Of a DNA stretch of 25,754 bases, positions 24,001 to 25,754 are shown one piece after another; positions within the stretch are counted from its first letter, which is position 1, and the number at the start of each line of letters is the position of its first letter. This DNA is from Candidatus Micrarchaeota archaeon (GTDB taxonomy: Archaea > Micrarchaeota > Micrarchaeia > Anstonellales > Bilamarchaeaceae). A program made the position numbers. The DNA lies in contig JBDRIM010000014.1 of assembly GCA_043816005.1 (NCBI GenBank), positions 1 to 25,754 of the forward strand. Direction: 5' to 3'.

Positions 24001-25754
24001 GACTATAGTTCTTACTGGTTCTATGATTCCATTAAAAGGGTTTGATTTTTCTGATGCATCTTTCAATCTAGGCTATGCAATCGCCAATCTTCAGATGCTT
24101 AAATCAGGCGTCTACATCTGTATGAATGGAAAAGTGTTCGATCCAAAAAAAGTTGATAAAAATAAGATCGCCGGGAGATTTGAGGAAGTTAAACCAAGCT
24201 AATTTATCTTCTATTTCGGGTTGAAATACTTAGTCTAGCTCCAAACATACTGCCAAGATTTCTATCTACAGGTACAACTGTAGTTGTGGGTGTCACATTC
24301 CTAAAATCTCTTATATTAAGTGGTCCAGTGCCTCTTATATTCGGAATTGGTTTACTTCTCATCACTATTGGTCTTACCTGTCCTTCTGTTCCATTAAAAT
24401 GATCCTTACGTGATCGTGGTGTTCTTTTTCCATTAGGCCTATCTATCTCTGGTTCACTTTCTTTTGGTGCAGTTTCTGGAATTCCAAATCTCTCTGCAAT
24501 TTTTCCAACTAATCTTGAGTGTTCACCTGGTTTTATTTGATTTCTTGCTAAAGCATCATCTACAATTGTCCTTAATCTTTCTTCACCACAATTATCATTC
24601 GTTACTTTGTTCCACAATCTTCTAAAAAAAGCACCTGGTTCTACAAGATGAGCATATTTATTCCGAGGTCCAGCTAACTCTCCACTTTTTGGAATAGTGT
24701 CGTCCATATTTACATTTCATGGTAAATAATATTTTTAAATAAATGCTACTTTTCTAGGAACTAGGTGTTTCTATACCATATCTCCTCATTTTTTCAACTA
24801 AAGTTGTTCTATTAATTCCAAGTGACAATGCAGCACCTACAACAGTTCCAGCAACTTCCAATGCATTTCTTATCATTTTTATTTCAAATTCACGAACCAT
24901 CGCCGGAAGAGATCCTTCCACTCTGTCAACTCTCATCTGCGTTACTACGGTCTGTTCAAATCCTTCGTTATCATCGTGTATTTGGCCATTCACTGCAAAA
25001 TTTGCAAGCCGTTCTACCAATGCTTTTAATCCACGAACATTACCCCCAAGTGTTCTAGCAATTTCCATAATTTTTTTCATTGCCTCATCACTTACCATAG
25101 TTATCTCATAACCAGAGTTCTGTTCATTAAATTGCCGTGCAAAATATTCAACAAGCTCTGACACATCATCAAGTCTATCTCTTAATGCTGGTGTTGTTAT
25201 CGTTACCACATTGAGTCGATCATACAAATCCTCCCTAAATCTTTGTTGTGAACTGGCTTCATCAAGATCTCCACTAGTTGCGCATATTATGCGTGTGTTA
25301 ACCATAACAGTTTCACTACTTCCAACTCTCTCAAACCCATAACCTTCAAGTGCACGCAATAATTTTACCTGCATTCTAATTGGCATGTCTTTTATTTCAT
25401 CAAGAAAAAGTGTCCCGTCTTGGGCTTGTTCCATTCTTCCTCTTCTATCTTTTATTGCGCCTGTAAATGCACCTCTTACATGACCAAACAATTCACTTTC
25501 AAACAATCCTTCTGGTATTGCACCACAATTTACTGCAACAAATTTTCCTTTTCTTTCTGCATGCAACGCCCTGGCCACGAGTTCTTTTCCACTGCCTCGT
25601 TCGCCAAGTAGCATAACTGATGAAGTGGTGCCAGCAACTCTTTCTATTTTTCTTCTAAGTTCTACTACGGGCGGACTGTGGCCTATGATCTTAAAAGAAG
25701 TAACTGGTTGCATGGCATGAATATTGTTGCAATAAGTATATAAATGTACATATC

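Follow-up and report, generated by a model that had tools for sequence, protein, structure and literature searches.

Wherever enhancer-binding proteins (EBPs) occur, sigma-54 is expected as their obligate partner, yet a clade of archaeal proteins keeps the EBP motor and the loop that grips sigma-54, with no sigma-54 in 99 genomes of the family. What would such a motor act on? The question is raised by the last gene of a contig (JBDRIM010000014.1, assembly GCA_043816005.1) of Candidatus Micrarchaeota archaeon, a tiny groundwater archaeon of the Bilamarchaeaceae whose genome is 86% complete with an estimated contamination of 5.5%. The window, i.e., the whole stretch of DNA analysed, comprises the 25,754 nucleotides of this contig, and all coordinates refer to it. 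An earlier note had read the gene as a horizontally acquired EBP that remodels something other than the sigma-54 holoenzyme.

A Sensorless EBP with an Intact GAFTGA Loop

The complete coding sequence lies on the reverse strand (24754..25713, stop codon included), encodes 319 amino acids from its ATG, and is 41 nt from the end of the contig. The open frame runs on past this ATG to the contig end at position 25752, giving 332 codons, of which the start codon is Met14. The earlier note had placed the start at this in-frame Met, and two observations bear it out: P0002 and P0003, which are its nearest relatives in the database, begin at the same Met, and an archaeal TATA box, TTTATATA, is found on the reverse strand at 25737..25744, 31 nt upstream of the ATG. 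Such a placement fits a leaderless transcript. Upstream of 903 ORFs of the genome the TATA motif peaks at −31 to −27; that of the EBP gene, at −31, is a perfect match.

The protein has no sensor domain, as its AAA+ core begins at residue 9, only 8 residues after the start. The core (residues 9–172; 25198..25689, reverse strand) matches the Pfam family Sigma54_activat (PF00158) at 3e-62, with 209.7 bits against a cut-off of 20.2, from residue 22 to 185 of the 332-residue frame and over positions 1–167 of the 168 of the profile. A six-frame search of the genome with PF00158 returns the same place (3.8e-63) as its sole true match. Sigma54_activ_2 (2.2e-19) and AAA_lid_14 (5.3e-10) are also matched. 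The Fis-type DNA-binding domain (residues 273–312; 24778..24897, reverse strand) is found by HTH_8 at residues 286–325 of the 332-residue frame (9.7e-9, 35.3 bits against a cut-off of 22) and by HTH_50 (9.2e-6).

The motifs of the motor can be read one by one on the reverse strand. Walker A, GERGSGKE (residues 37–44; 25582..25605), has G37, G40, G42, and K43 invariant in an alignment of 45 sequences, and the same holds for D105 and E106 of Walker B (LDE; 25396..25401) and for the arginine fingers R160 and R166 (FREDLYDRL; 25216..25236). The signature of the L1 loop, GAFTGA, occupies residues 81–86 (25456..25473) when read directly from the DNA, so the intact loop reported earlier is confirmed; ESELFGHVRGAFTGAIKDRRG is likewise present. 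Sensor II is represented by N225-V-R227 within GGNVRGL (25033..25041), where the clade described below has Gly instead of Glu at 228 and no Trp at 222. Sensor I reads ATS rather than ATN in this protein and its two closest relatives, and Asn is present in nearly all others. The sensor-I Asn has a role in ATPase activity, and a Ser in its place could lower that of the protein.

Judged by its sequence, the protein has every residue needed for ATP binding and hydrolysis, together with a GAFTGA L1 loop and a Fis-type HTH. The ORF, the Pfam matches, and the motifs thus agree with the previous description of a sigma-54-type AAA+ module plus HTH_8 without sensor domain. The AF2 model (pLDDT 92) shows three helices at residues 269–312, and its structural matches are FleQ, NtrC4, ZraR, FlrC, and PspF, with E values from 1e-22 to 1e-26. 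The match to the AAA+ domain of FleQ has a TM score of 0.88–0.89 and an rmsd of 2.1 Å, and that to ZraR spans both AAA+ and HTH.

A Native-Looking Gene in a Variable Region

The gene appears to be native. Its G+C content is 0.395 versus 0.368 (sd 0.022) among 609 long ORFs of the genome, its synonymous codon use falls on the 54th percentile of the same ORFs, and its GC3 is 0.238 versus a genome mean of 0.257. The contig also codes for an RFC small subunit, a KaiC-like ATPase, a tandem Lrp/AsnC regulator (22041..23003, reverse strand), and an asparaginase N-terminal domain. The genes flanking the EBP, up to the adjacent ORF of 167 amino acids, are syntenic with those of two congeners, G024 and G001, at 78–88% amino acid identity. 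Given this synteny, a codon usage typical of the genome, and an archaeal promoter, the archaeal nature of the contig, asserted in the earlier note, is well supported. Public DNA covers the stretch only with low-depth groundwater metagenome contigs of 150–540 nt, and none of those listed spans the join between the EBP gene and the gene next to it. A search of genome contigs for related loci gives only a chance match of 21 residues in a Hyphomicrobiales contig.

The two congeners, which are the nearest relatives, have no EBP at the syntenic site, and an ORF of 367 amino acids that they carry between IleRS and ValRS, considered as a decayed EBP, has no similarity to it. The gene sits in a variable region, next to an orphan ORF; an ORF of 179 amino acids is an orphan, found in none of the 98 other genomes. 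Between positions 22900 and 25754 there are no inverted repeats or UAS-like sites, and the region upstream of the EBP is cut by the contig end, which takes any autoregulation sites out of view. Beyond position 25754, the synteny leads one to expect IleRS.

An Archaeal Clade of Sensorless EBPs

The family contains 18 other homologues, in 16 of the 98 other genomes and 8 of the 23 genera, with 37–59% identity to the query. This reproduces the earlier count of genomes and genera. All 18 are sensorless, and all occur in archaeal gene contexts (Alba, NurA, PolB, Pus10, PTH2, the archaeal ThrRS editing domain, PcrB, Nre, and FEN1). The earlier note also held that the gene had been kept in the Bilamarchaeaceae. 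That wording goes too far: the distribution is patchy, with 17 of 99 genomes, this one included, and the nearest congeners lack the gene where synteny would place it. The gene is accessory in the family.

The loop had previously been read in two homologues only. It is now found as G[AS][FY]TGA in all 18: nine have GAFTGA, seven GSFTGA, and one each GAYTGA and GSYTGA. Walker A, the DE of Walker B, and the arginine fingers are likewise present in 18/18, and the sensor II Arg in 17/18. The motor is kept even in the many clade members in which HTH_8 cannot be detected. From these alignments, it is evident that the motor and the sigma-54-gripping loop are under constraint across the archaeal clade.

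Phylogenetic analysis groups these proteins together. In a quick maximum likelihood tree, the 18 family sequences, seven sensorless database proteins, and P0121 are separated from 48 bacterial-type sequences by a branch with an SH-aLRT of 99. A more careful maximum likelihood tree recovers the same grouping, with a support of 69/20 for a single archaeal clade. One of the members is named by NCBI as a protein of "Candidatus Micrarchaeota archaeon." Several residues are derived in the clade. The Trp of WPGNVREL, present in 96% of 208 bacterial-type sequences, is found in 0/24 clade sequences; Q123 drops from 91% of the bacterial-type sequences to 8%, and P171 from 86% to 4%. Of the 83 columns at least 85% conserved in bacterial-type sequences, 49 are still at least 85% conserved in the clade, and the aligned sequences indicate a looser conservation there than in bacteria. 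The closest bacterial proteins are 45–49% identical to the EBP. Outside the family, a homologue in genome G288 has a GAF-AAA+-HTH architecture, lies on a short contig, and looks bacterial. Both the trees and the substitutions shared by the clade fit an origin by horizontal transfer from bacteria, as already suggested, followed by diversification within the archaeal lineage.

Absence of Sigma-54

The three Pfam domains of sigma-54 (Sigma54_DBD, CBD, and AID) each have 0 matches at E ≤ 1 in this genome, which bears out the reported lack of the factor. One objection was that sigma-54 might lie in the missing 14% of the assembly. It is removed by the wider survey, since among the 99 family genomes DBD exceeds its cut-off in none and CBD in none. 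Because the 17 EBP-bearing genomes are 71–92% complete, the loss of sigma-54 to assembly gaps in all of them is not credible.

Promoters tell the same story. The −24/−12 consensus recognised by sigma-54 is TGGCAC-N5-TTGCW. Its spacing (TGGC-N7-TTGC) is not enriched in the genome, with 41 matches versus 23–69 at other spacings, and the three matches to the full consensus all fall inside long ORFs. According to a 2025 survey (PMC12316311), sigma-54 always co-occurs with EBPs across 1,628 organisms, and 380 archaeal proteomes, used as an EBP-free negative control, contain no sigma-54-specific EBP. Among the literature records available, many of them partial, we found no paper on EBPs of Micrarchaeota, DPANN, or other archaea.

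Candidate Partners at the Locus

When the loci of the family are compared, no partner gene is conserved beside the EBP homologues. The 167-amino-acid ORF downstream of the EBP (24204..24707, reverse strand), which has no Pfam or NCBIfam match and carries TATA-like motifs at −36/−32, can be rejected, as its homologues are found only in G024 and G001, which lack the EBP. A LonB-like AAA+ protein of 480 amino acids, without protease domain and with a Zn-ribbon insert, is encoded immediately upstream of the EBP in G072 and G065a; in G073 a single transglutaminase-like gene separates the two. The LonB-like gene is a housekeeping gene, present in 88 of the 99 genomes, and was also rejected. The copy of the genome under study is on another contig (C80), has another gene after it, and C80 shows no end overlap with the contig of the EBP (C14).

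The tandem Lrp/AsnC regulator, identified by Pfam, is a lead only. Three genera have it close to a clade-A EBP gene, and its identity is 61% to the copy near the EBP of G059 and 49% to the copy near that of G086; it thus marks a shared ancestry of the locus; tandem Lrp and asparaginase make up an EBP locus common to several genera. Orthologues with at least 56% identity are found in seven other genomes, six of which carry an EBP. However, the regulator belongs to a family with many paralogues, present in 51 of the 99 genomes, most orthologues are not adjacent to an EBP, and related genomes are not independent.

What the Motor May Act On

On balance, we lean towards a native, functional archaeal EBP of the NtrC/PspF type, belonging to a sensorless and lineage-specific clade that would have arisen by an old bacterial transfer into Micrarchaeota and then diversified, and working as a DNA-bound motor on a protein other than sigma-54. 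The loop that grips sigma-54 is intact with no sigma-54 in 99 genomes; hence, the motor probably serves another partner. In bacteria, it is the N-terminal peptide of sigma-54 that is surrounded and translocated by the L1 loops. By analogy, the archaeal protein would bind DNA through its HTH and assemble into a hexameric ring, and the ATP-driven movement of its L1 loops would take hold of a terminal peptide of some DNA-associated protein that is not sigma-54 and partly unfold or translocate it. The outcome may be a transcription switch of a small regulon. The candidate client may belong to the archaeal initiation complex (TFB, TFE, TBP, or RNAP) or be a DNA-bound repressor or a chromatin protein. 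As there is no sensor domain, control would come from the expression of the gene itself or from a regulator acting in trans. According to PMC7057263, which describes L1-RI and L1-DNA contacts, Tyr is tolerated in place of the loop Phe.

A different explanation, which we hold to be unlikely if worth serious attention, is that the protein is a conventional DNA-binding repressor or recruiter, with ATP controlling only its oligomerisation, as when FleQ, TyrR, NtrX, or VpsR act independently of sigma-54, and with a GAFTGA loop that would have no partner. An HTH_8 is present, the best solved relative is FleQ, bacteria do have relatives that work independently of sigma-54 (two of them, NtrX and VpsR, appear in the PDB matches), and the somewhat relaxed conservation of the clade would suit such a role. 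But the bacterial relatives that dispense with sigma-54 have lost or degraded GAFTGA, whereas 17–18 of 18 deeply diverged homologues that live without sigma-54 retain not only the loop but also Walker B, the arginine fingers, and sensor II. In addition, the many members in which HTH_8 is not detectable retain the motor.

The non-sigma-54 client that we favour could, more specifically, be the archaeal, eukaryote-like initiation machinery. The domesticated motors of Micrarchaeota would then remodel the TBP/TFB-RNAP promoter complex, the target that the earlier note had suggested, as ATP-driven enhancer-type activators, and would thread or unfold a part of TFB, of TFE, or of an inhibitor bound at the promoter. 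This we regard as distinctly doubtful. To our knowledge, archaeal initiation opens DNA without ATP, hence there is no known locked complex for such a motor to unlock. The protein does combine a DNA-binding HTH with an intact remodelling loop, and TFB and TBP, both encoded in the genome, are the only initiation factors on hand. According to PMC12054792, the bacterial loop acts on an initiation factor at the point of DNA opening. Against this, nothing in the analysis ties the EBP to TFB, TBP, or RNAP, the gene is accessory and patchy, and no TFB paralogue or other basal-factor gene adjoins any of the 18 homologues.

It is very improbable that the EBP serves a sigma-54-like factor that was missed, be it a highly diverged archaeal counterpart or a sigma-54 belonging to a partner bacterium. 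The exact sigma-54-contact motif is retained, and these DPANN-type archaea have reduced genomes (0.7–1.6 Mb) and probably depend on a host, but the known hosts of Micrarchaeota are archaea, the domain searches described above are empty, the −24/−12 spacing gives no signal, and the EBP has an archaeal promoter and neither a signal sequence nor any hint of export. Hardly credible at all is an artefact or dead cargo, that is, a bacterial contaminant joined to the end of an archaeal contig or a recent transfer without function: the terminal position of the gene, the estimated contamination, the want of a bridging contig among those listed, and the bacterial look of the G288 homologue would agree with it, but the gene has native codon use and GC3, a TATA box at the distance preferred by the genome, and an intact frame with all motifs, its nearest relatives are sensorless proteins of the same archaeal family in archaeal contexts, and even the closest bacterial proteins are quite distant.

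The preferred reading, in which the loop has a second client, would offer a way into the substrate choice of AAA+ activators, and possibly into an ATP-driven control of archaeal transcription. Alternatively, the motor itself may depend on the loop, and the way GAFTGA is interpreted in bacteria would then need revision. Were the client to be the initiation machinery, open-complex formation would for the first time be seen under ATP-driven, enhancer-type control in a system other than that of bacterial sigma-54. The protein is small, its fold is confident in silico, and it could be made recombinantly; the question is therefore directly testable though the organism is uncultured.

Comparison with Bacterial EBPs

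PspF of E. coli and HrpR/HrpS resemble the archaeal protein in architecture: they have no regulatory domain and consist of an N-terminal AAA+ core, a lid, and a Fis-type HTH. They also share with it an intact GAFTGA, Walker A and B, arginine fingers, and sensor II. The AAA+ domain of PspF has a TM score of 0.83 to the model and a sequence match of 2e-47, whereas the NCBIfam pspF profile gives the archaeal protein 232 bits, below its cut-off of 443.6. The setting differs from that of PspF, as there are no sigma-54 and no −24/−12 promoters, the promoter has an archaeal TATA box, and PspA, which regulates PspF in trans, is not found in the genome (PspA_IM30). The archaeal clade further departs from PspF by its substitutions, namely the lack of Trp in WPGNVREL, E228G, and Q123E.

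FleQ of Pseudomonas aeruginosa is the best solved relative (8p53, 2.3e-64), with 46–47% identity over the AAA+ domain and a C-terminal HTH that aligns with the archaeal one. It has an N-terminal FleQ domain, in contrast to the archaeal protein, which starts 8 residues before the core. FleQ has FleN as a partner, is under c-di-GMP control, and works with sigma-54. A third group, including TyrR, NtrX, VpsR, and the NtrC of Rhodobacter capsulatus, consists of EBP-derived regulators that act without sigma-54. The NCBIfam TyrR profile gives 202 bits on the archaeal protein, below cut-off. In TyrR, NtrX, VpsR, and R. capsulatus NtrC, the GAFTGA motif is lost or degraded; unlike them, the archaeal EBP and its 18 family homologues keep a GAFTGA-type loop.

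An Enhancer-Binding Protein Encoded in Archaeal DNA

The last gene of the window (24754–25713, − strand) encodes a 319-aa enhancer-binding protein (EBP) of the sigma-54-activator type. The sigma-54-interaction AAA+ core is matched at 3e-62 (Pfam), the lid (AAA_lid_14) and a Fis-type HTH_8 are matched as well, and Pfam finds no domain N-terminal of the core. The protein carries the signature ESELFGHVRGAFTGA, and the GAFTGA codons of the L1 loop were confirmed on the DNA itself (25456–25473, − strand). The earlier note had described such a sensorless module with an intact loop, an observation that proved right in all details checked. 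Walker A, Walker B, both arginine fingers, and sensor II are intact; in the trio to which the query belongs, the position of the sensor-I Asn is held by Ser. The AlphaFold model, made with an alignment of 45 sequences, reaches a pLDDT of 92 and superposes with the AAA+ domains of FleQ, NtrC4, FlrC, LuxO, and PspF at TM scores of 0.83–0.92, and with ZraR across AAA+ as well as HTH. By sequence, the top solved relative is FleQ of P. aeruginosa (2.3e-64).

Between the Met at 25713 and the contig end there are 13 further open codons. The closest database relatives, P0002 and P0003 (322–323 aa, 68–69% identical), share this Met, and a perfect TTTATATA lies 31 nt upstream of it. Upstream of 903 ORFs of the same genome, TATA-like motifs peak at −31 to −27 (counts 21, 25, 30, 11, and 19; background 1–10), as is typical of leaderless archaeal transcripts. 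Together these observations indicate that translation starts at the Met at 25713. The gene thus has an archaeal promoter, and its AAA+ core begins at residue 9.

The EBP locus is archaeal DNA and not contamination. In synonymous codon use the EBP gene ranks at the 54th percentile among 609 long ORFs; its GC3 is 0.238 (mean 0.257). From position ∼10.4 kb of the window to a 167-aa ORF abutting the EBP gene, the genes are syntenic with those of the congeneric genomes G024 and G001, and protein identity is 78–88% for the well-conserved among them, RFC and KaiC-like included. The archaeal nature of the contig, as previously claimed, is thus borne out by codon use, GC3, and synteny. In public groundwater metagenome runs, fragments of the EBP gene and of its neighbors are both found, at similar low depth; none of the public metagenome contigs listed bridges them, so the join is without independent proof.

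Distribution and Origin

The other genomes of the family contain 18 homologs (37–59% identity), and the earlier count of 16 of 98 genomes and eight of 23 genera was reproduced. Contexts of up to ∼8 kb per side were fetched for all 18 loci, and every one has archaeal genes around it: Alba, NurA, PolB, Pus10, PTH2, the archaeal ThrRS editing domain, PcrB, Nre, PAC2, FEN1, and L11. The AAA+ core always begins ∼10–60 residues from the N-terminus, HTH_8 is detectable in five homologs, and some have C-terminal extensions, for a total length of up to 1,928 aa. With genome G020 represented in the tally by a database row of identical core (P0159), L1 reads G[AS][FY]TGA in 18/18 (GAFTGA in nine, GSFTGA in seven, GAYTGA and GSYTGA in one each); Walker A, Walker B, and arginine fingers are present in all, and the sensor II Arg in 17. 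L1 loops contact DNA too, and Tyr can substitute for Phe (PMC7057263).

The long extensions (718–1,928 aa in total, no Pfam domain) occur in some clade members, at loci L041:3061–8847 (G086), L043:5889–9053 (G004), L038:6687–8843 (G074), L046:654–2927 (G035), and L040:2551–4389 (G067). The G004 protein has additional, weak HTH_8-like stretches. In G067 a 613-aa HTH_8-matching protein, which BLAST clusters with EBPs, is encoded downstream of the EBP gene. In G020 (L031, ∼7460–8680), a + strand 405-aa ORF of no family overlaps the true EBP frame (375 aa, − strand) and extends beyond it, so that a longest-ORF gene caller chooses the wrong strand.

In a phylum-wide sample of 301 genomes, strong PF00158 matches are found in 12 of 65 other genomes of the family and in three of 235 genomes of other families. 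One of these three, G272 (C14; L059, 1459–2445), has a 328-aa sensorless homolog adjoining ribosomal protein S6e; it keeps GAFTGA, the Walker B Asp is replaced by Ser (FSE, not LDE), and it is possibly an ATPase-dead derivative. G151 has a 552-aa form. The protein of G288 (C31, L047; contig of ∼3.3 kb) has the classical bacterial architecture GAF-AAA+-HTH_8, clusters with bacterial response-regulator-type EBPs, and may be a binning contaminant or a recent transfer.

In a search of 5.8 billion proteins, the next matches after P0002 and P0003 are bacterial NtrC-, AtoC-, and FleQ-type regulators (45–49% identity). Trees of the AAA+ core comprised 74 rows: all family rows, G151, G288, 20 near neighbors, and 34 drawn at random from database rows with >100 residues N-terminal of the core; G272 was excluded for its long branch. 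The quick IQ-TREE separates all 18 family rows, seven sensorless database proteins, and P0121 from 48 bacterial-type rows by a branch with SH-aLRT 99. The careful tree recovers the identical group with support of only 69/20, and a query subclade (G072, G073, G086a, P0002, P0003, P0157, P0027, and P0178) with 100/92. At positions nearly fixed in bacterial-type proteins, 24 clade rows were compared with 208 bacterial-type rows, a label given by architecture, with source names for a subset only. The Trp of WPGNVREL (222) is present in 96% of bacterial-type rows and 0/24 clade rows, Q123 in 91% and 8% (E in 75%), P171 in 86% and 4%, and E228 in 97% and 17%. These shared derived states stand independent of the tree. 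One clade member is named at NCBI "sigma-54 dependent transcriptional regulator" of Candidatus Micrarchaeota archaeon, and one row outside the clade is from a Nitrospirota bacterium. Conservation within the clade is looser than the bacterial, with 49 of 83 strongly conserved columns retained. Our reading is that the gene was acquired once, long ago, and then duplicated and diversified within the archaeal lineage; the ML topology shows a single origin, without strong support.

Absence of Sigma-54

Six-frame searches of the genome gave no match at E ≤ 1 to the DNA-binding domain of sigma-54, in agreement with the earlier note, nor to its core-binding or activator-interacting domains; among all 99 family genomes none has a DNA-binding domain over the cut-off or a core-binding domain match. 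Because the 17 EBP-bearing genomes are all 71–92% complete, it is not plausible that sigma-54 hides in the assembly gaps of every one. The −24/−12 spacing TGGC-N7-TTGC is not enriched (41 occurrences, 23–69 for other spacings), and the three full-consensus sigma-54 promoter matches all lie within long ORFs.

An Accessory Locus and Its Neighbors

In G024, RFC is followed by KaiC, the 167-aa ORF, and IleRS; G001 also has a duplicated asparaginase, after KaiC and before the 167-aa ORF. The EBP, the tandem Lrp, and the 179-aa ORF are all missing from the syntenic site in both genomes. The EBP gene is therefore accessory, and its distribution is patchy. The stretch from the KaiC-like gene to IleRS (22041–25713 here) is variable: this genome has the tandem Lrp, the 179-aa ORF, a single asparaginase N-domain gene, and the EBP; G001 (L073) has only the duplicated asparaginase, and G024 (L072) none of these genes. 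The 179-aa ORF (23125–23664, + strand) is an orphan without Pfam or NCBIfam family and with homologs in 0/98 family genomes. The 167-aa ORF (24204–24707, − strand) is basic, of low-complexity look and no known family, and has its own TATA-like element; its homologs are confined to G024 (52%) and G001 (40%).

The IleRS of G024 and G001 is a class I synthetase with DUF5915 (942–947 aa). Given the synteny, and because no orthologue was found in the present assembly (86% complete), the gene probably lies just past the contig end, beyond 25754. EBP genes of G013 and G020 adjoin IleRS too, on the opposite side. The block asparaginase–tandem Lrp–X–EBP also occurs in G059, a different genus, and the EBP copy of G086 has a tandem-Lrp paralogue nearby. 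Hence, the locus predates the genus; either close relatives have lost it, or it has moved within the family.

No convincing partner or target was found among neighbors, PspA, and inverted repeats: PspA is absent from the genome, and the EBP region has no inverted repeats. In G072 and G065a the gene immediately upstream of the EBP codes for a LonB-like AAA+ protein without protease domain; in G073 one gene intervenes. This candidate was rejected because it is a housekeeping gene, carried by 88 of the 99 family genomes. This protein (C80:24556–25983 in this genome; L029:6458–7900, L030:1901–3340, and L039:728–2161) has 480 aa, with an insert resembling a zinc ribbon between the two Walker motifs (A and B); it matches TIGR00764 at 364 bits, under the cut-off, and Spt4/Zn-ribbon weakly. 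The 167-aa ORF was likewise rejected, its homologs being only in EBP-less relatives. The closest tandem-Lrp orthologues co-occur with the EBP in six of seven other genomes, which is a lead only.

Possible Mechanism and Comparison with Bacterial Systems

Intact ATPase motifs, L1 loop, and HTH are under constraint in a lineage without sigma-54. The archaeal EBP would bind DNA and assemble into a ring, whose L1 loops would act on a DNA-associated protein other than sigma-54 and so alter transcription; lacking a sensor, the protein would be controlled through its own expression or by a factor acting in trans. We lean slightly toward this general mechanism. A role in DNA binding alone seems unlikely: bacterial relatives known to have abandoned sigma-54 lost the L1 loop, whereas the archaeal clade retains it. 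TFB and TBP are both encoded in the genome, and the earlier note had suggested remodeling of a TBP/TFB–RNAP complex; that the client is the archaeal initiation complex is, in our judgment, improbable, and action on the archaeal RNA polymerase is speculation.

The TFB gene is cut by the end of contig C25 (271 aa visible), and C41 ends in a further TFIIB cyclin-repeat fragment; the two pieces may belong to a single gene split in assembly or to two TFB genes.

No paper on archaeal EBPs was found in the literature searched, supplements aside. The archaeal EBP breaks the rule that pairs EBPs with sigma-54, a question testable with a small recombinant protein. It differs from the bEBP system in both elements of context, sigma-54 and the −24/−12 promoters, but is a member of the bEBP family by sequence and fold, with an architecture similar to that of PspF.
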